Shown here piece by piece: positions 2,128-16,346 of a stretch of 22,957 nucleotides of DNA; position 1 is the first letter of the stretch; the number at the start of each line of letters is the position of its first letter. The stretch is from an uncultured archaeon (GTDB taxonomy: Archaea > Asgardarchaeota > Thorarchaeia > Thorarchaeales > CAZPUN01). The stretch is taken from assembly GCA_964589775.1 (NCBI GenBank), contig CAZPUN010000038.1, positions 1 through 22,957 on the forward strand, in the 5' to 3' direction. Made by a program: the position numbers and the translations under genes. The notes under the pieces are model-generated. The model was not told the origin of the DNA. It did not search any database and was given only the letters and a program-made list of their open reading frames with translations.

Positions 2128-3315
2128 GTGGCGAAAAAAATAGCAATTATTGGTGGTACAATCTTACCAATCACAAGTGACCCAATCGAGAATGGGGTCA
2201 TTCTCGTCGAGAATGGCAAGATCGCAAAGATAGGAAAAAATGTAGACATACCAGATAATGCAGAAGTTATAGAAGCGAAGGGAAAATACATACTGCCAGG
2301 CTTTATTGATGCGCATACACATCAAGGGATATGGCAAGATTCAGTCGGTTGGGAAGGCAGAGATTTTAATGAAATGACAGATCCTGCAACACCACATCTG
2401 AGAGCAATTGATGCGATATATCCTGAAGATAGAGGTCTTGCAGATGGCCCAGAAGGTGGAGTTACCGCTATTAATACTGGACCTGGATCTGCAAACGTCA
2501 TAGGTGGTATTTTCGCAGTTATAAAAACACATGGAAAAACAATAGATGACCTTGTAGTAAAGCCAGATGCAGCCTTAAAAGTAGCATTTGGTGAGAATCC
2601 CAAACGCGTATATAACGAACAAAAGAAAGCTCCGACAACTAGAATGGCAGTGGCTGCTGTGTTCAGAGAACAATTTACCGAAGCTAAAAACTACATGGCA
2701 AAGTGGGAACACTACAAAAAACAAATCGAAAAGGGAGAAGATGTAGCACCCCCGGAAATCAATCTGAAAATGGAAACTCTTGTAAAAGTTCTAAAGAAGG
2801 AAATGCCAATCCACGCACACGCACATCGTGCAGATGATATAATTACTGCCATTAGACTTGCAGAGGAATTCGATATTAATATTGCATTAATTCATGCAAC
2901 AGAAGGACATCTAATTCCAGAATATCTCGCAAAGAAAAAAGTACCATGTATTGTCGGACCAAATCTCATAGGTCGCGAAAAGGTTGAACTGAAAAATGTC
3001 ACATTTGATACTCCAGGAGTTTTAGAAAAACACGGAGTGAAAATCGCATTACAGAGTGATACGATTCCACCATTACGATACTTCCAGCTCATACCTTTAC
3101 TAGCAGTGAAATACGGCATGGATGAAAAAGAGGCCTTAAAAGCAGTAACAATTAATCCCGCAGAAATTTTAGGTATTGCAGACCGAATGGGTTCATTAGA
3201 GCCAGGCAAGGATGCCGACATTGTAATTTGGACAGATCATCCATTAGAATTCAAAGCTAGAGTTGAAAAGACGTTCATAAACGGTGAGAAAGTTTTCGAA
3301 TTAAAGAAAGCATAA
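2128..3315 (+). CDS. Metal-dependent amidohydrolase (Amidohydro_1, Met_dep_hydrolase_C-like), substrate unknown
   Basis: Motifs [42 protein letters not shown] and [10 protein letters not shown]. The track's GTG2119 lies inside the SD GAGGTG (2116-2121), so the in-frame GTG2128 is preferred as start. Confidence 0.93.
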
Positions 3316-7411: not shown

Positions 7412-10400
7412 TTAACGTCGTTTCTTGGCGATTATGACAATCAATAAGATCATAGCGGCTCCAATCAATGCTCCACCGATTAGCAAATCAGTTGGAACGT
7501 TTGGAATGTTTGTACCAGTGTTGGTATTAGAACTACTTGATGATGAAGACGATGATGAACTAGTTCCGCTTGCAACTACATATGAGAATGACGGCGAAAT
7601 TTGTTCATTGTTCAATGTGTCTGCAGCATGAATTCTGTATTTGACTTCAGTACCGGCAGGCTGACCTGGAATTGTTCCTTGATATGAATTACCATCCATA
7701 GGCGTCATATCAACGCTAGTCCATGTAAATCCACCATCGGTGCTGTATTCAAGCTTTACCCACTGGACGCCATCGGGGTCATCAACAGTTGCGTAAATAG
7801 TGACTTCTTCATTTGCTGCAGGAGATGGGTTGCTAATGCGAATGTCAGAAATTGTAGGTGCACTTGGATTAGATGTACCGCCACTACCCTGACCACTGGA
7901 ATAACCAACATATGCAGGATCCTGGAAGACTGCGAAACCGTCCCACTTCGGGAAGCCAATTGTTACGTAATACTGGTTTGAACTAACTGTGAAACTTGTG
8001 ACTGAATTACCACCTTCACTTTCATATGTGGCTTCAAATGTACTTACAGGTGTAACCGAGCTGGTCACATTGATTGGAACTGTAGTATTCTTTGCCCAGT
8101 CGTATGTATTACCACCAAGTTTCATTTCTGCAAATACACTATTTCCGGAACCGAATGATAGTGATGGCGCAACAGAATTCTGGTTGTTATCAACTTCTGT
8201 ACCATTCGTGCCAAATACTTGATACGTTTGAGATAACTCTGCTTCAGCATAATATGCAATACCTAAGCTCCGATCGACAAGGACCGCACGACCGCCAAGT
8301 ATATCAACATCAAAGTTTCCAATGTGCTGGTCTACTTTGAGCTCAAACTTGTTGTTTACACTCTGAGTGATATATCCATTGAAGTGTACTAAGAAGGTTA
8401 ATTCGTCGATAACTGCATCAGTCGGACGCTCATCAAATGTAAGCATGTCAGATTCAACCATACCGGAGTACCAGTCCCAATAGCCATAGCCAAATGGGAA
8501 GAACGTTCCAGAGACATTATAGTATGTAATGCCAAATGTCAGTGAATCATTAACATTTAGTGTAAGATGTCCGGTTAGGTTATAGTTGCCATAGGCTTCG
8601 CCAGGTAGCACAAAGGATACTCCATCCACACCATCAGGTATGAAGTAATGAGTCACTTCGGAGTTGGTAAGATTGCACGGGTCAATATCGATTATTCCAT
8701 TGTTATTGGTATCATTGTATATGAATAGACCTGCAAATTCGTATCGCATTTTAATTGCGGTGTATGTATATGTAGTATTTGTAACGGAAGAAGTTCCATA
8801 GGCCTCATCAAAACCGAACCAGATCCAAGACCATGTCTGCCAATCATTGCTTATCCAGTCCCAGCCTCTTTCTTGAGCTTTCTGGACAATATCAGCCCAA
8901 GTCATATTGCGTACATACCAGCCAAGAGTCCAATATCCAGGATTAGGCTCACCACTGGATGACAATATGGTCGAATTAATTTGTGCCATTTCAGTTGCAT
9001 TTACAGGAGTAAAGTCGCTAGCATGGTACCAATAGAATCTGTATTCCCATGAGAATCTCCATGCCTGAGTTGCAAGACCCATAAATGAACGAACATGTAC
9101 TTCGTCGCCTGATACGGTTCCGTTCGGGTTCCACCAGATATCTACAAACAGTGAACTGGTATTGTACTTCCATTCATCAGATGAAGTGTATTCTTGTAGT
9201 ATGTAGTATTGGTCGTTTGTGGTCTTAACATCACCATCGAGGTCTAGAGCACCAGTTTCAGTTGTCTTCCATGCACGGAAGCCCCACATGTCATATTGAG
9301 GATTACCGATAATCAATTCACTTTGCGACTTGATTGTTCTGAAGCCTAATGGCTTAGGACCGTATACATACGCCCAACCATAGATCTTTATCTGAGAGTA
9401 AACGAAATCATATCGCGGAATTAGTAATTCTGTGTAGTTTGCAGCACTTAAGCCATAGATTTGTAAGTAGGTATAACTATCATACATTGGCTTAGCAATT
9501 ACCCAACGGTCATACGCTGAAGTGCTGTTTATGAACTCATAATTGTAAATTCTCATTTCTGGTGCAATTAGCTGACCAATAGATAGATCGCCCTCAAAGT
9601 CATCCACAATAATGTATGGAGTTCCATTAATGACATAGTAATATCGGTTGTAAGTTCCATTTATGTAACTCATTGTAACGTTAAATATCGGATATAGTTC
9701 AACAGTCAATAATACGACAAAAGCCCAATCATCTAGGATTAGTTTTGTTCCATTAATGAGTCGATATTCGTATTTATTAGTGGTATCATTATAATTGAGC
9801 GTATCAGTATAACCATAGTAAACATGACCTAGAATCTTCACTTTATACACTGCAACTGAGGATCCGTAATAGATAGTATATCTTGTACCATTGTAAAGTG
9901 TTATGTACTGACTTCCGTTATCATAGTCGTAAGACCAGCCATGATACGTCGTCAAATTAGTATCTTTTGTAATATCAAGATAACCTCTCACATCAACAGG
10001 CAGCGGACTATTGGGAATATCGTTGTTCATTATGGAAAGTTTGCCATACAGGGCTGTTACACCAATACCATCATCATGTTCTTCTGGACCACTAATACCA
10101 AAATTCACTAGTAATCCATTGTACATTGTGAAGATCGTATGGTTGCAATTTTCAAAGTATCTTAGCCAGCCAAGATATGTTAATTCAACAGTACTATTGT
10201 CAATTTGTATGTAATAGCTTCCATTTGCATTTATTATTGGATAGATTACACCATTGATTTTTATAGACTGAGATGCAGGAACAGCACCGTTATTGTAAAT
10301 GGTTCGATCCAAATCGTCCCAATACAGAGCTTTTGTACCAGGTTCAGGCATCTGATATTCAGTACCATTTACATTCGTGTAGTAGTAATTTACTAGTTGC

Positions 10401-13399
10401 CAGTCAGCGTAGTATAGCTTAGTACCATTATAGTCTACAGGATATGAATACTCTGGCCAAGTTATGTAATATATAGTTCCGTTGGCAACAAAGTAGTGTC
10501 CATAATTCTGATCTTCTTCGATATAGTAGCGATAATTGGCAGGAGTGATTACATAGTATTTCTCAACGATTGCATCCCATCGGAATGCACGAAATTCCAT
10601 ATAGTATGAACCGTTTACAATTGATACGTATCTCATAAATTCATTAGTATCGACATTGATGTAGTCAACAATTGTGTAGTTGTATCCTTCAATTTCGTAA
10701 TAATCAAATGAGACAACAGTTCCATTAAGTAATATCCAAGTGTTGCCTCTGTTGAATTTTTCAGCAGTATAACGGTTCCAGATATATATTCCATTAAGGG
10801 CAAGGAATGATTTTCCGTTAGTAAAGTTAACTTGATAAATTGGTCCAAGTCTTCTTTCATATACGTAGTACTTTTCGCCATTTTCACCAAGGTAATATCT
10901 ATCCCACATGCCAGTTGTTGAATTATATTCCTCATATAGTAATCTCTTTGTAGTATAACCACTAGACTCAATTGAATAGTATGACTTGATAGGAACTTTT
11001 GTATTTCCAATGACAATATATGGTGTTGTCATTGCTAAATATTGTGTTTGATTATAACCATAGAACAGACCTACGCGTGGAGTGCCAAAGTATGCAGCGG
11101 TAGCATTGCTTGTCCATACAGGAGATCTGTGCCAAGCAGTTACTACATGCTCGCCCCAACCTTGAGAGTAGTCGATCTGCCAGGTATTATTTAGATAGAA
11201 AACATTCCACATATATGAAGTCTGGGGTGCTAATGAATTAACTGTAAGATTCATAAATACGTCCAGTGTTGGTGAATCTAAGAAGTATGCTTCATTAATA
11301 GTGAAAATCGACACATTTACTTTAGTTTGAGCACTGATCATTTCAAAGTTTGCATTTTGAATCCATTTATGTAGCGATTGATCATATGAGTAAAATGTCC
11401 AATACCAACCAGTAACTTTCACATTTTCCCACTCAGTATAATTACCATAAACCCATACGTAATCACCCAGTGTTGCGTTCCATTCATAGTGCCAGTCGGT
11501 CTTATTTACTTCGACCCATTCCCAGTGTTCACCATAAGTTAAATTATATTTCTGGGTGTAGTTGAATGCGAGGATTTCAGTTGTATTATCCTTTAGTATA
11601 TGAATTATGTAATTCAATGTTGTGTATATGGATTCATTATTACCGTATTTTGAAGTCCATGCACGAATGTCGAAGGCTGCGCCATCTACATCATCTGCAA
11701 TGTCTGAAGCACCTTGTACATAAGACTGCACGATGAATGGAACACCCGGATCAATATGGGCAAACCATGTTCCAGTTGAGCTGCCATCATTCTTAGTGAT
11801 TTTTGCAACTGTAACCGGTGTTTCAACAGCAATTTGTCGTGCTTGCTCAAAATCCTCTCTAGTCTGAATTGCTTCAACCTTTGCGTTTGCACCATCATCC
11901 ATAACGTAAGCAGCAGGTTGAAATTCATACATATCTTCGTCATAGACTCGTGGATAAAATGTGTATATTTGACCACGTGGAGTTTCATTGGTAAAGTAAC
12001 CAGTAAATGTAACACTCCAACCAAGAGTTGTGTTAACAACCGAAGTGCTTGTCAAATTGAACAAGATAAGGTCATCTGAAGTTACAGGTGTAATATTAAA
12101 GTGCATACCAGATTTTCCAGTTATAGGATCAACGCCCCAATATGTATATCCAATGTATGAACCGAAAGTTCCTGACGAATAATTATACAGATAGAAATAT
12201 TTCAAGTACGCACTATCATTGTATGGAACAATTTCGCCAGTAGTATAGTTGCGATAATAATTCGTATATGTTACATAATTGTTCAGGAACACATCACGAT
12301 ATTCAATGTGTGGCCCATATACCTCTTCAGTATAGGTAATATTTGCATTTTCATCATATACATAGCAATCCAGTGTTTCATTGTATATCCAACCGCCAGT
12401 TTCATGGATGACTTTTCTGTACCACCCGTATACAGTAACTGGAACTTTCAATGAATATGGCATGTCTAGAGTTAGCATGACATATGACAAAGTCATTGCA
12501 GAAATGTTTAATCTAAATGTGAATTCCTGACCACGTGTCGCAGAATAGATTGGATCGCCATTGACATCATATTTCTCAAGGGTGTACATTCCCGAATATA
12601 GTTCGCGCATTGCTTGGCTCTTAGAAATACCAATTGGAAGCATCTTATGGGGCGCGGAATCATAATAGCCATTACCCTGAAAGTCTGAAATCATAAGTGA
12701 TGAAGAATAAGTTAATGGTATGGTATCATTAGTAAAGTATCCAACTATTTTTATTCGGATCATATCAACATCAACGTTTACTGAACAGCTTGGTTGGTTG
12801 ATTTCAAAGAAAGCGTTATTGGTTTGCGATATAAGAGTCTTATCAGGGACATCTGCAAACATACTGCCAGAAGACATATCCGATGACGTCATGTTATATT
12901 CATTTATACTAGAATATGAATACCATGGCTCATAAGATTCGTTTCTGTAACCGATTGTGAAGAAAATATCGGTTTGTGTCTGATTTTCAGGAATATAAAT
13001 ATGTGCGTAAGCTTCGATAGCAGTTTGATAAAGAGACTTGCCACCTAATAGCTGACGTGGTATCGTGATATTCAAAACAATTGTTTGTTCAATTGGAATC
13101 GTTTCTAGATCACCTATCTCTGTTCCATTCGAGAAATAGATGCGATAATCCGCTTTGGGACCGAACACCCAATTACGATTTGTCCAGTTCCATGAGCCAG
13201 ATTCATTTTGATTCTGCTGGTCCCAGAACACATTCAGGTCACCCGGAGAATTGTTTGTTTGTGAGACTACAAAATTGTTCTCACGGGTGATTGCTGGAAC
13301 TGTTGATTCTGGTAAGGGACCTGCAGAGGCACCTATCATCGATATGAGGAACAGAGAGATAGATAATATAGCCATTATTTCCTTACTATATTTGATCAT
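7412..13399 (-). CDS. Giant (1995 aa) secreted, C-terminally membrane-anchored surface glycoprotein (S-layer/adhesin-like), function unknown
   Basis: N-terminal signal peptide (MIKYSK, hydrophobic core, ASA). Very many N-x-S/T sequons in a Tyr/Asn/Trp/Thr-rich beta-type sequence. C-terminus has an Ig-like domain, a poly-Ser linker, a TM helix and a KKRR tail. SD GAGGTG at 13411-13416. Confidence 0.9.
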   Translation of the reverse strand: MIKYSKEIMAILSISLFLISMIGASAGPLPESTVPAITRENNFVVSQTNNSPGDLNVFWDQQNQNESGSWNWTNRNWVFGPKADYRIYFSNGTEIGDLETIPIEQTIVLNITIPRQLLGGKSLYQTAIEAYAHIYIPENQTQTDIFFTIGYRNESYEPWYSYSSINEYNMTSSDMSSGSMFADVPDKTLISQTNNAFFEINQPSCSVNVDVDMIRIKIVGYFTNDTIPLTYSSSLMISDFQGNGYYDSAPHKMLPIGISKSQAMRELYSGMYTLEKYDVNGDPIYSATRGQEFTFRLNISAMTLSYVMLTLDMPYSLKVPVTVYGWYRKVIHETGGWIYNETLDCYVYDENANITYTEEVYGPHIEYRDVFLNNYVTYTNYYRNYTTGEIVPYNDSAYLKYFYLYNYSSGTFGSYIGYTYWGVDPITGKSGMHFNITPVTSDDLILFNLTSTSVVNTTLGWSVTFTGYFTNETPRGQIYTFYPRVYDEDMYEFQPAAYVMDDGANAKVEAIQTREDFEQARQIAVETPVTVAKITKNDGSSTGTWFAHIDPGVPFIVQSYVQGASDIADDVDGAAFDIRAWTSKYGNNESIYTTLNYIIHILKDNTTEILAFNYTQKYNLTYGEHWEWVEVNKTDWHYEWNATLGDYVWVYGNYTEWENVKVTGWYWTFYSYDQSLHKWIQNANFEMISAQTKVNVSIFTINEAYFLDSPTLDVFMNLTVNSLAPQTSYMWNVFYLNNTWQIDYSQGWGEHVVTAWHRSPVWTSNATAAYFGTPRVGLFYGYNQTQYLAMTTPYIVIGNTKVPIKSYYSIESSGYTTKRLLYEEYNSTTGMWDRYYLGENGEKYYVYERRLGPIYQVNFTNGKSFLALNGIYIWNRYTAEKFNRGNTWILLNGTVVSFDYYEIEGYNYTIVDYINVDTNEFMRYVSIVNGSYYMEFRAFRWDAIVEKYYVITPANYRYYIEEDQNYGHYFVANGTIYYITWPEYSYPVDYNGTKLYYADWQLVNYYYTNVNGTEYQMPEPGTKALYWDDLDRTIYNNGAVPASQSIKINGVIYPIINANGSYYIQIDNSTVELTYLGWLRYFENCNHTIFTMYNGLLVNFGISGPEEHDDGIGVTALYGKLSIMNNDIPNSPLPVDVRGYLDITKDTNLTTYHGWSYDYDNGSQYITLYNGTRYTIYYGSSVAVYKVKILGHVYYGYTDTLNYNDTTNKYEYRLINGTKLILDDWAFVVLLTVELYPIFNVTMSYINGTYNRYYYVINGTPYIIVDDFEGDLSIGQLIAPEMRIYNYEFINSTSAYDRWVIAKPMYDSYTYLQIYGLSAANYTELLIPRYDFVYSQIKIYGWAYVYGPKPLGFRTIKSQSELIIGNPQYDMWGFRAWKTTETGALDLDGDVKTTNDQYYILQEYTSSDEWKYNTSSLFVDIWWNPNGTVSGDEVHVRSFMGLATQAWRFSWEYRFYWYHASDFTPVNATEMAQINSTILSSSGEPNPGYWTLGWYVRNMTWADIVQKAQERGWDWISNDWQTWSWIWFGFDEAYGTSSVTNTTYTYTAIKMRYEFAGLFIYNDTNNNGIIDIDPCNLTNSEVTHYFIPDGVDGVSFVLPGEAYGNYNLTGHLTLNVNDSLTFGITYYNVSGTFFPFGYGYWDWYSGMVESDMLTFDERPTDAVIDELTFLVHFNGYITQSVNNKFELKVDQHIGNFDVDILGGRAVLVDRSLGIAYYAEAELSQTYQVFGTNGTEVDNNQNSVAPSLSFGSGNSVFAEMKLGGNTYDWAKNTTVPINVTSSVTPVSTFEATYESEGGNSVTSFTVSSNQYYVTIGFPKWDGFAVFQDPAYVGYSSGQGSGGTSNPSAPTISDIRISNPSPAANEEVTIYATVDDPDGVQWVKLEYSTDGGFTWTSVDMTPMDGNSYQGTIPGQPAGTEVKYRIHAADTLNNEQISPSFSYVVASGTSSSSSSSSSSSNTNTGTNIPNVPTDLLIGGALIGAAMILLIVIIAKKRR

Positions 13400-13410
13400 T
13401 TTTTATTATC

Positions 13411-13416
13411 CACCTC
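13411..13416 (-). promoter_or_regulatory. Shine-Dalgarno GAGGTG of the giant surface-protein gene
   Basis: CACCTC on +, 11 nt upstream of ATG13399. Confidence 0.7.
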
Positions 13417-13458
13417 TCTTATTAAAGGTTTAAGATGAAGAACCAACATACTGACGTA

Positions 13459-13632
13459 CCGCTTTGAAATGCGGAAGTTATGCGTATAAGCTATTCAAGA
13501 TAGCCCATTCGCGTAGGTACTCACTATATCCAAGTGAGCACACGATACGCACAGTTTATTTTTTGAACGATCCACCACCAGTTGAAAAGTGATGGATTTC
13601 GCGCATTTCTGTAATTATCGATTACAGTTGAA
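13459..13632 (-). ncRNA. Candidate structured cis-regulatory RNA / long 5' leader, family not recognised
   Basis: Six or more helices in ~170 nt, three G-U pairs valid only on the - strand, 42% GC (13451-13640) versus 19% in the adjacent 13661-13800 (hand count), and no long ORF. Confidence 0.65.
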
Positions 13633-13661
13633 GGTCCACATCTAGAAAATAATTAGTACGT

Positions 13662-13684
13662 ATACAAATAAAAAACTTTTCATG
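13662..13684 (-). promoter_or_regulatory. Putative BRE/TATA-like promoter for the leader plus giant gene
   Basis: The - strand reads CATGAAAAGTTTTTTATTTGTAT. This would place the TSS near 13640-13645, just before the first hairpin. Confidence 0.45.
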
Positions 13685-13870
13685 TCAAATACATAAAATG
13701 AATTAATTTTTTTACAATATTCAGCTTATTTTATTAAGAAATTCGTAATAACTAGATTGTAAAAAATCAACAAAATCGCAAGTAAAATTGGGATAATAAC
13801 AATATGAATATGAGGTAATTAGAAAAAGTATCATTTATGAAATATCTAAAGATATGTGATACAATTTTTT

Positions 13871-13894
13871 ACAAAAAAAGAAAAAAGGAAAAAA
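13871..13894 (-). terminator. U-tract terminator of the SpoIIM-domain gene
   Basis: The - strand reads TTTTTTCCTTTTTTCTTTTTTTGT just after the stop at 13896. Confidence 0.65.
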
Positions 13895-13895
13895 T

Positions 13896-16346
13896 CTACC
13901 AATGATAGCCATAAAATCCAAAGAATCTAAGAAGATTCGGACGCAAATAGGCTTCGATCATAGCAGAAATTATGAATAAGACAATTACGAGAAAATAGCT
14001 TCTCCATACTGCAGGATCTTGAGTTTCTTCTTTCGTTCGATTTATGAATGCAATATAGTCTCCACTATCAACATATTCGTTGAGTTCATCCGCAAGCTTT
14101 TTGCCAGCCGCTGCAGCAAAGAAGAATGCGGGTAATTCAATGATACCATGCGGTACGATATATAGAATCGACTGGAATAGTTCACCCGCCAATGAATGGA
14201 TAATGAATTTGCCCGTTATCCAGAACATAGTTGACATAACTTCGATTGCAGGTAGCGCCCAAAGAGAATATTTGACAAATTGGATTAGAAAATCTTTCTT
14301 TTTCACAAGGGAATCATAAGCGGCGGGTAACAATGGGACTACAAATAATGAAAGATATGTAAATTGATCATCATATGCGAAATATTCAACGATCAAAACT
14401 ATGATGGTGCTTATTAGCCATAATAGGTTTCTTTTGAAATTGGGCATTTCTTCATGTTTCTTGGTATAGATAACATAAAGCTGAAAGATCGTAGCCCAGA
14501 CGACAGGACCAATGAAAATCATTAGCAATGACCTTATGCTGTTATGCTCAAATATGATGACAAACGGTGAGAATGTAAGGAGAGCCTCTAGGCCTTCAGG
14601 CATTGCTATTTCATACAGGATCCAATTAACCAAAGTGTTTGTTTCTGCCAAGGATATGAAACACATGGGGATTATGAATGCCGCAGTTAGAATGATTGCA
14701 AGAAATGCCACTTTTACTATTGTGTAAACTTCATTTCGGGTAATATTCAGAAATGCAGATTCGAGTTTTCCAGTTTGAATTGCCCATTGTTTTCGGTAGT
14801 ACAGATAATACATAAGGAATAATGCGGTAAATGTCCATATGCTGCCATCTACGATTATTGTCATAAGCATTTTTGGAACAAGATATTCAGGACCTTGTGG
14901 AGCCAAATTTATTGTTAATCTGATATACTGAAATGTCGTGCCCATATAATCCATTAGAGACCAATATGATGTGAGGAAGAAGTCAATTTCAGGTATCAAT
15001 ATCATAAGTCCTGCCATTGTAGAAAGCCCTGTCAAGAGAGCTAATAGTTCTTTTCGTACTTTAAAAATATCCGACATTTTGTATCCAATGATACCCAAGA
15101 GTAATTTCAATGCCAACAGAATAAATACAACTGAAACAACCCAGATAAACTGAGGAAGATGCGACATGAAAAAGTCAGAAGTATTGAGTGATGTTACCAG
15201 ATTGCTCATAAACGTACTGTCTGGAATTAATATGTGAGCACTGGTTAATGTTAATGTAACGGCAGATATAGTTACGAAAGCTATCATAAATGTAATTGCA
15301 CCTGCAACAAATGAAGTGACTAATGTTTTTATTGCACTTGCAGAAACTGCGCCCTTTGAATAAGTTTTAACGTTCATTGCGAATTTCAATAGTTTCTCAA
15401 AGAATTTCTTCGCATATGGCTCAACCAAGGGTAGCAGAATAATTGCAAATAGAATAGGTCTAATAAAGTCCAACAAGGCAAAGAAAAGGCTTATTAGATA
15501 TCCGATACCTGCGCTTCCACTAACGATAGGAATAATGACAGCAGAAAGTATGGTAATAAATATGTTGAATTTAAAGAATATTCCGGTAGTACCTTGCATC
15601 ATTTCCTCGCCAATATTTCTGGTTCCCACTCGAACATTGGCACCCTTAGCAAGCCTGTTCGCAGCAGGATAACCAAAACGGTAAATAAATATCGCAAAGA
15701 TCAATGCATTTAACACATAGATATTAGTACCGGAAGTTAGCAAGTTATAGCCAAAAATTGTAGTCGGTAGCAATGTTGCAAGACCGATAATTAGATAATC
15801 TTTCCATGATTCATTAAAAGTTTGTTCGATAACCTGCGGATCGTAAGGAGATTCAGTTCCAGTATCAACTGAAAGATTATGGAACCTATCCCGCACCTTC
15901 GGGAATTCAAGTTTTTCCAAAGGTCGCCTCCGAATTCTATTTAGAATGTTCTTTCCAAAGGTTTGCAGAGGCATGATGAGTGTAATTCTTAAGAAAATCA
16001 GTAACACGCCGAACACCGCAGAAAAGAATGAAATCATGACCCAATACCAAAATTCTTGAAATGCTGAATTAAACTGGTACATGAAATTAATTATAAAAAG
16101 CCACCATAATGTAGAGATATTGTTTCCAGAATCTGAATAATCAGGCGTTCCATTTATACCACGAAACATGAGATTGGGTGATATGAAATAAAGGAGATCC
16201 TTGAGTATGACATTTATTAGCATAATCAATAGAAATGCTTCAATATATCTGTTTCTTTGCTTTCTAAATAATATAACATACAGAACTGCAATTGAAATGA
16301 ATGGGAGGAGGTCCCACAACAATGTTATTTCTAACAAGTAATTCAC
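13896..16346 (-). CDS. Large polytopic membrane protein with a C-terminal SpoIIM (DUF95)-like domain
   Basis: Roughly 18-20 hydrophobic segments. C-terminal motifs IIFEHN, IVPHGIIELPAFFFAAAAG and ISAMIEAYL match the SpoIIM/DUF95 pattern. GTG16346 lies within the SD GAGGTG, so the in-frame TTG16337 may be the real start. Confidence 0.8.
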   Translation of the reverse strand: MNYLLEITLLWDLLPFISIAVLYVILFRKQRNRYIEAFLLIMLINVILKDLLYFISPNLMFRGINGTPDYSDSGNNISTLWWLFIINFMYQFNSAFQEFWYWVMISFFSAVFGVLLIFLRITLIMPLQTFGKNILNRIRRRPLEKLEFPKVRDRFHNLSVDTGTESPYDPQVIEQTFNESWKDYLIIGLATLLPTTIFGYNLLTSGTNIYVLNALIFAIFIYRFGYPAANRLAKGANVRVGTRNIGEEMMQGTTGIFFKFNIFITILSAVIIPIVSGSAGIGYLISLFFALLDFIRPILFAIILLPLVEPYAKKFFEKLLKFAMNVKTYSKGAVSASAIKTLVTSFVAGAITFMIAFVTISAVTLTLTSAHILIPDSTFMSNLVTSLNTSDFFMSHLPQFIWVVSVVFILLALKLLLGIIGYKMSDIFKVRKELLALLTGLSTMAGLMILIPEIDFFLTSYWSLMDYMGTTFQYIRLTINLAPQGPEYLVPKMLMTIIVDGSIWTFTALFLMYYLYYRKQWAIQTGKLESAFLNITRNEVYTIVKVAFLAIILTAAFIIPMCFISLAETNTLVNWILYEIAMPEGLEALLTFSPFVIIFEHNSIRSLLMIFIGPVVWATIFQLYVIYTKKHEEMPNFKRNLLWLISTIIVLIVEYFAYDDQFTYLSLFVVPLLPAAYDSLVKKKDFLIQFVKYSLWALPAIEVMSTMFWITGKFIIHSLAGELFQSILYIVPHGIIELPAFFFAAAAGKKLADELNEYVDSGDYIAFINRTKEETQDPAVWRSYFLVIVLFIISAMIEAYLRPNLLRFFGFYGYHW

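Follow-up and report, generated by a model that had tools for sequence, protein, structure and literature searches.

A folded element in front of a giant surface-protein gene of a Thor-like Asgard archaeon is probably a diverged copy of a protein-free IS200/IS605-type mini-transposon

The strongly folded stretch that precedes the gene of a 1995-aa surface glycoprotein-like protein in the 22,957-nt stretch of DNA analysed here (the window) is very likely a diverged, probably immobile copy of a protein-free mini-transposon of the IS200/IS605 type (PATE), which occurs in about 42 copies in the genome. The repeat copy upstream of the 1995-aa gene, which lies on the minus strand, is referred to as the window copy. 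Since the ends of the family match the geometry of IS608, the structure of the element appears to be inherited from a mobile element. The repeat family is new, while its kind (PATE/IS200-IS605 class) is already known.

The observation from which the analysis started, a densely folded RNA-like element on the strand of the surface-protein gene, is confirmed: the stretch is real and strongly folded. All six helices listed in a sequence-only reading of the window were found in the sequence of positions 13300–13900 (Table 1) and are present in the MFE structure, and the three C/A mismatches of the plus strand indeed appear as G-U pairs on the minus strand, as in RNA-like pairing. The claimed strand specificity was borne out by RNAfold, with the shuffle check run on both strands. 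Positions 13459–13632 of the minus strand reached −57.1 kcal/mol, as compared to −35.2 ± 3.6 kcal/mol for dinucleotide shuffles (z −6.17; none of 200 shuffles was as good), whereas the plus strand reached −47.6 kcal/mol (z −3.57). The GC content of the element (42–45%) likewise contrasts with that of the neighbouring positions 13650–13850 (17–22%), and the element, as described, shares its strand with the downstream gene and is flanked by an AT-rich, promoter-like region on one side and on the other by a Shine-Dalgarno (SD) sequence (GAGGTGG, 13416–13410; ATG, 13399–13397). It extends beyond the 3′ limit originally assigned, to about 13438–13445. As a control, the 609 intergenic regions of the entire 2.16-Mb assembly (GC 35%) were folded as 4454 segments of 174 nt; by approximate z, the stretch 13459–13632 ranked 13th, beside rRNA and SRP RNA.

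The statement that the element belongs to no known RNA family also held. Rfam 15, searched with the whole 22,957-nt stretch at the gathering score, gave no match; at E ≤ 10, nothing was found on it within 13300–13900, and the Rfam searches yielded chance matches only (rox2, Corio-PBP). Five other copies of the family had no Rfam match at E ≤ 1, and ARAGORN did not predict a tRNA.

Two other intergenic stretches of the genome, C13:54405-54578 (+) and C1:27070-27243 (−), folded better (approximate z of −7.9 and −6.5). Neither of them matches an Rfam family at the gathering score or belongs to the repeat family; both are structured RNA candidates. A further stretch, C13:67477-67650 (+) (locus L173), is tRNA-like, with a closing stem GGGCCCGTAGCCTAGCGGATAG...GGGCCCGCC and an apparent long insert; the Rfam tRNA model made no call at the gathering score, and the locus may be an intron-containing or unusual tRNA gene.

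Table 1. Features of the surface-protein gene, its upstream region and the window copy (positions of the 22,957-nt window)
Feature	Position	Strand	Basis or remark
Hairpin CTGTAAT/ATTACAG	13609-15/13621-27	+ coordinates	sequence
Long-range helix GAAATGCG/CGCATTTC	13466-73/13602-09	+ coordinates	sequence
10-bp hairpin	13570-79/13588-97		two C/A mismatches on + become G-U on −
Junction-closing helix TGCGTAT/ATACGCA	13481-87/13545-51	+ coordinates	sequence
Hairpin GCTAT/ATAGC	13490-94/13500-04	+ coordinates	sequence
Long arm	13512-25/13533-44	+ coordinates	sequence
1995-aa surface glycoprotein-like gene	7412..13399	−	signal peptide, C-terminal Ser-rich linker, TM helix, KKRR
SD of the 1995-aa gene, GAGGTGGAT	13408..13416	−	sequence
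T runs adjoining the stop codon of the SpoIIM-domain gene that lies upstream (ends 13896)	13865..13895	−	sequence
TATA-like box TTTTTTATTTG	13666..13676	−	candidate; score −1.9
Second candidate TATA box TAATTATTTT	13655-13646	−	
Candidate TATA box GCTTATAC inside the element	13484..13491	−	score 7.1; would give a ~65-nt leader
Core, right-end half	13438..13561	−	hp0, hp1, hp2 in short outer helix, right subterminal hairpin, tail
hp1 (CUCACUU..AGUGAG)	13520..13538	−	core of the 12-bp arm; model pairs 30-36/43-49
hp2 (GGGCUAUC..AUAGCUU)	13488..13506	−	hairpin 13490-94/13500-04 lengthened by G-U pairs
Right subterminal hairpin CCGC-AUUUCAAA-GCGG	13457..13476	−	IP_R equivalent; aligned to family CCUCGCAU-CUCA-AUGCGGGG
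Right-end tail CGUCAGUAUGU	13445..13456	−	counterpart of family end AGUAUGUCAG, which carries TCAN
5′ part: CUGUAAU/AUUACAG (13627-13609) and 10-bp hairpin of AUCCAUCACU/AGUGGUGGAU type (13597-13570)	13562..13650	−	
Three-way junction, closed by UGCGUAU/AUACGCA	13481..13551	−	in MFE; alternative to family helices hp0 and P4

The spacers C21:77953 and C37:13070, which were among those ranking highest for structure, share a block GAGTA..GCGAAATGGCTATC..TAGCCTATACGCA with the window copy. A fuzzy motif scan of the genome detected more than 35 loci with the core block, and nhmmer with a profile of the 124-nt core detected 43, among them the window copy at an E value of 8.8e-21. A covariance model (R1), built from five hand-drawn helices and 30 copies with the window copy left out, matched positions 13438–13561 of the minus strand, the 3′ two-thirds of the element, over its full length (model positions 1–130 of 130; 66.2 bits, E 1.2e-15) and gave 42 matches in the 2.16-Mb MAG. 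All copies in the MAG are intergenic, and no recurring protein family was found beside them. Relative to their neighbours, the copies are oriented nearly at random: 24 point the same way as the downstream gene and 17 the opposite way, and for the upstream gene the numbers are 19 and 20. Due to this intergenic location, the mixed orientation and the lack of a recurrent neighbour protein, the family is considered the leader of no particular gene class.

R1 had no match in 100 relatives, and a search of 150 genomes across the phylum returned one weak match (25.9 bits, genome G158), which was judged spurious, as it consists mostly of coding DNA and shows no visible similarity. In total, the family was not detected in about 230 distinct other Asgard genomes searched. 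Moreover, neither blastn of the element against 60 relatives nor a search for the core motif in viral contigs gave any match. The host MAG is the sole member of its family in the comparison set, within a Thor-like order, and the NadE protein encoded next to the surface-protein gene has its best matches, at about 50% identity, in Thorarchaeota MAGs.

Four metagenome contigs carry the core motif. L250 and L251 represent the same strain as the MAG organism (99.8% identity), and L249 and L252 contain further copies with flanks that do not occur in the MAG. The copy on L249 (Ga0256914_1006837; positions 2219-2497, minus strand) shares ~65 nt with the 3′ end of a gene for a 778-aa Lamin-tail-domain protein and is located near a Cas1 gene; this contig may come from the same organism, as unbinned DNA, or from a second host.

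Alignment of the flanks revealed sharp boundaries of the family and a length of full copies of 198–276 nt, in two classes of 198–224 and 261–276 nt. The left end comprises TTAC, followed by AAACACTCTGCGAGAAAG and a hairpin CATCGC(TT)-loop-(AA)GCGGTG; at the right end, a hairpin CCTCGCAT-CTCA-ATGCGGGG is followed by AGTATGTCA(G/T/A). A left end was detected in 20 copies, and almost all of these begin with TTAC, which is separated by 18 nt from the foot of the left hairpin, and AAAG is situated just 5′ of this foot in most left ends. TCAN is found 10 nt after the right hairpin, and beyond the sequence GGGG-AGTATGTCA(G/T/A) conservation ends. The two subterminal hairpins are alike (left, ATCGC..GCGGT; right, CTCGC..GCGGG), with a T-G mispair in each. 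By eye, no target duplication was visible in the flanks of about 20 full copies, and the end-to-end inverted similarity is weak (about 10 of 15 bases); interpretation as a MITE was dropped for these two reasons. An HMM of the left half found 38 of the 42 cores, 25 of these out to the TTAC end. In the long copies, TATA-like blocks (TATACATATAATAAAT) were recognized by eye about 25 nt before the first structural element.

Two loci (C64:26028-26235 and C21:44297-44492) contain a full core and then a second, partial core in the same orientation, in a tandem or nested arrangement, and an inverted right-end fragment is present just upstream of the copy at C61:22700. For the module GCGAAAUGG...CCUAUACGC, assignments as K-turn or C/D-box, H/ACA, hammerhead or loop E were rejected, as inspection by eye showed the respective motifs to be lacking.

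In IS608, the transposase TnpA cleaves 3′ of TTAC, 19 nt 5′ of IP_L, with the guide AAAG, by which TTAC is recognised, directly 5′ of the hairpin, and cleavage of the right end occurs after TCAA, 10 nt 3′ of IP_R (PMC3201880). The family shares with this element of Helicobacter pylori, a representative of IS200/IS605, the TTAC and AAAG motifs, the spacing of about 18–19 nt, and TCAN 10 nt 3′ of the right hairpin. However, IS608 carries tnpA and tnpB whereas the family is gene-less, the fixed right motif TCAA of IS608 is replaced by TCAG, TCAT or TCAA, and the hairpin sequences of the family are unrelated to those of IS608. By analogy, a Y1 (HUH) TnpA would excise and insert the elements as single-stranded DNA via the TTAC/AAAG/hairpin/TCAN layout, and the anatomy of the family suggests that it was mobile.

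The PATEs of Haloquadratum walsbyi derive from IS605-type transposons; PATEs are defined as non-coding elements that lack inverted terminal repeats, possess near-terminal palindromes and do not generate a target duplication (PMC3119063). Like these elements, the family described here lacks clear inverted terminal repeats, shows no target duplication to the eye, carries similar palindromes close to its two ends, and has many diverged (‘heterogeneous’) intergenic copies with a conserved terminal oligonucleotide. In contrast to Haloquadratum, the host is an Asgard (Thor-like) archaeon, in whose genome neither a parent IS605 element nor TnpA or TnpB was detected, and a recognisable left end is missing from the window copy.

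A six-frame search of the MAG, which is 96.75% complete, for Y1 TnpA (PF01797, NF033573) was negative, while control genomes gave matches. TnpB (PF07282, PF01385, NF040570) was not found in the MAG either. OrfB_IS605 gave weak matches on C7 and C21, in frames of 628 and 678 aa, that did not reach the cut-off, and a 438-aa frame on C9 with a weak zinc-ribbon match was identified as TiaS, not TnpB. Genes of insertion sequences are often left unbinned. Many copies are located near contig ends, within about 1 kb (C50:999, C53:712, C3:1046, C48:972, C25:1150, C46:912, C10:5701), suggesting that the repeats contribute to the breaks in the assembly; in such gaps, a parent element with tnpA or tnpB could have been lost.

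The conserved core of about 125 nt, which reaches to the right end, contains five helices on the LE-to-RE strand. In the model-based alignment, which is fitted to the structure so that its pair counts lean towards it, 79.5% of the cells pair, as compared to 31–47% in slid controls, both partners have changed in 23 of 31 pairs, and the covariation score of 0.302 was reached by none of 500 shuffles (0.236 ± 0.009); across the family, this alignment contains 183 G-U versus 117 A-C pairs. A plain MAFFT alignment gave a smaller covariation excess (0.256 versus 0.234, reached by 7 of 500 shuffles). From 39 copies aligned with MAFFT, RNAalifold predicted almost no structure, since the hairpins are put out of register by indels. 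The fraction of pairs kept drops from 0.9 to 0.6 with divergence, and many copies are decaying. The most conserved block of the family is the motif flanking hp2, GCGAA(A)UGGCUAYC...UAGCCUAUACGCA.

With its location beside the right end, the core occupies the position where IS605 elements encode the scaffold of the TnpB omegaRNA, and such a scaffold is the most likely origin of its conserved hairpins. PATEs ‘often encode omegaRNAs’, for which TnpB is needed in trans (Meers et al., PMC10055086); a scaffold in the protein-free copies of the present family would have the same need. The PATE-like elements of Geobacillus stearothermophilus resemble the family in being protein-free, in having kept both ends, and in their structured scaffold abutting the right end. 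However, Geobacillus is documented to have cognate TnpB and TnpA genes and to express the omegaRNAs (PMC10055086), whereas no TnpB and no homology to known omegaRNAs were found here.

The window copy has neither TTAC nor a homologous left end, so that only its core is securely assigned to the family. The core stretch (13438–13561) folds with a z of −4.18 on the minus and −2.84 on the plus strand. Its hp1 differs from the consensus CUCGUCG/CGGCGAG by compensatory changes, and its right subterminal hairpin, which forms in both DNA and RNA folds, competes with the long-range helix (13466-73/13602-09). Conservation in the family stops sharply after GTATGTCAG; in the window copy, the right end reads GCGG followed by TACGTCAG, with TCAG at nt 5–8, in a register that is ambiguous. 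A helix equivalent to the junction stem, GCGUAUAG/CUAUACGC, is possible, as judged by eye, in copies that read GGAGCGTATAGC (for example C23:117k, C27:30k and C61:22k). Thus, two of the six listed helices are those of the family (hp1 and hp2), the junction stem occurs in a subset of copies, and three helices are private to the window copy. There are no ORFs of at least 60 aa within 13438–13650.

The 5′ part of the window copy has a layout like that of the left half of the family, with two hairpins separated by a spacer and an A-rich run leading up to the core, but was not matched by the left-half HMM even at an E value of 10. The stretch 13562–13650 is structured on the sense strand only (z −3.95 on minus versus −0.36 on plus). 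A left hairpin is present (13627–13609) but not homologous to that of the family, and TTAC and AAAG are missing, with TTTT and TCAA at the equivalent places. An IS608-type pair of target and guide was also considered for this part and rejected, since AGAT, 12 nt from the hairpin foot, is at the wrong distance. As it lacks a recognisable left end, the window copy is probably immobile.

At 22 of its 62 paired positions the window copy differs from the consensus, and it has kept 26 of the 31 pairs, whereas random decay would leave 17–20 (P ≤ 0.007). Other diverged copies likewise keep pairs beyond random decay; the retention of pairs in the window copy therefore probably reflects a constraint on the master lineage, not on this locus.

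The 1995-aa protein contains dozens of N-x-S/T sequons and has no Pfam match. Full-length homologues of about 35% identity are encoded in nearly all of 60 relatives; a protein search gave no relative above 27% identity, and a metagenome scan with the first 700 residues did not find anything. The element is not conserved upstream of these homologues: blastn and R1 did not detect it in any of about 47 upstream regions from relatives (loci L032-L047 and L131-L165), which carry a different leader of about 75–150 nt and no copy. This leader is only mildly structured (mean z −1.7); in 31 of 34 cases, complementarity between its terminal 34 nt at either end exceeds that of shuffles. The homologue upstream regions share a strongly conserved CTTATATT box, followed 30–45 nt downstream by a GCGCGCC-like box (GCGCGCC or GCGCCGC), and have GGAG 8–14 nt before the ATG. 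In several homologues (L145, L148, L153, L033) a GGCGCGC immediately upstream of the SD is the pairing partner of the GC box. The leaders of the homologues possibly represent a conserved architecture in their own right. Since the SD is conserved in the homologues, the mRNA is expected to have a leader.

Termination at oligo-T tracts is established in archaea, and the T runs behind the upstream SpoIIM-domain gene (Table 1) are likely to be a terminator. These T runs imply that the giant gene needs its own promoter in 13400–13860, and as the copy is situated between them and the ATG, any promoter upstream of the copy must read through it. A TATA box near 13670, and with it a leader of about 240 nt, had been proposed, but could not be confirmed. 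When scored with a promoter matrix derived from 37 homologous genes of another family of organisms (training sites 4.2 to above 18, median 18.1), no site in the 500-nt spacer came closer to the CTTATATT box of the relatives than GCTTATAC, within the element. If the element were removed, the box at about 13670 would be placed about 73 nt from the ATG, a plausible ancestral arrangement. By a small margin over an even chance, we expect the element to be transcribed within the 5′ UTR; a start of transcription inside the element is estimated to be clearly less likely. The window copy, 38–45 nt before the ATG of the giant gene and in sense orientation, would thereby be a passenger in its 5′ UTR, and simple transcription as such a passenger is its most likely role.

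A gene-specific cis-regulator, riboswitch-like or protein-binding, was the interpretation offered by the sequence-only reading, and a dense structure with a three-way junction, located before a gene and on its strand, does have the appearance of one. However, the core is one of 42 dispersed copies beside unrelated genes in both orientations (24/17 with respect to the downstream gene), it is absent before the about 47 homologues examined in relatives, and no Rfam family matches it, which makes a new regulatory RNA of this gene very improbable. A family of trans-acting small-RNA genes spread by duplication, with the window copy as one such gene, would account for a structure that is conserved and covarying on one strand, for the TATACATATAATAAAT blocks upstream of the first structural element, and for a genome in which no transposase was found; it would not be expected to have sharp boundaries with the IS608-type TTAC/AAAG/hairpin/TCAN geometry, many decaying copies, copies at contig ends, and a distribution that leaves out about 230 other Asgard genomes. 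We regard this explanation as improbable, and it overlaps with the transposon reading, since a PATE bearing an omegaRNA would be both. Somewhat less doubtful, but still unlikely, is that the copy donated a promoter: transcription would start from GCTTATAC (13491-13484), most of the structure would lie upstream of the start site and outside the mRNA, and the resulting leader of about 65 nt would still hold the SD. The score of GCTTATAC (7.1, versus −1.9 for the box at about 13670) tops the spacer but is far below the training median of a matrix taken from another family of organisms, and the sequence is one base off the family consensus CCTATAC, which is found before genes of either orientation.

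Some mRNAs of S-layer proteins have long structured 5′ leaders, and the window copy resembles these in that a long stretch with strong folding separates the SD of a probable major surface-protein gene from its promoter region; it differs from them in that the fold stems from a dispersed repeat and lacks conservation before the homologues. A PATE-derived copy might have been kept and remodelled as a structured 5′ UTR of the highly expressed surface-protein mRNA, acting as a stabiliser or an SD switch. This is a rather unlikely scenario, in spite of several features that agree with it: the sense orientation at 38–45 nt from the ATG, the terminator-like T run upstream, the retention of family pairs despite about 35% change at paired positions, additional strong private helices together with a 5′ part structured on the sense strand only, and the long leaders with complementary ends in the homologues. 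Besides, the 7-mer GGTGGAT occurs twice, in the 3′ arm of a hairpin (13576–13570) and in the SD (13414–13408), so that the AUCCAUC arm (13597–13591) could pair either with GGUGGAU (13576–13570) or with the real SD, a possible decoy or anti-SD arrangement. Yet folds of equal or greater strength are seen in copies beside unrelated genes (C21:77953, z about −9.8; C37:13070, about −6.8) and other diverged copies also retain their pairs, which means that neither fold strength nor pair retention is special to this locus. Moreover, the nine copies located within 45 nt of a co-oriented start codon suggest an insertion preference rather than selection. Domestication in the narrower sense, as an mRNA stabiliser or as a gate of the ribosome binding site via AUCCAUC/GGUGGAU decoy pairing, appears slightly more doubtful still; if true, it would mean that an archaeal leader RNA had been made from the scaffold of a transposon guide RNA.

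The reading of the element as a diverged PATE is mainly of value as a correction, in that a convincing riboswitch-like leader turned out, by a check of the whole genome, to be a transposon relic. The family would be a further case of omegaRNA-like, protein-free IS605 derivatives, here in Asgard archaea and in a genome without detectable TnpA or TnpB. It raises the questions of whether such scaffolds persist by inertia, and of what effect dozens of copies have on neighbouring genes when situated 45 nt or less from their start codons. For such effects, the window copy would be a natural test case.
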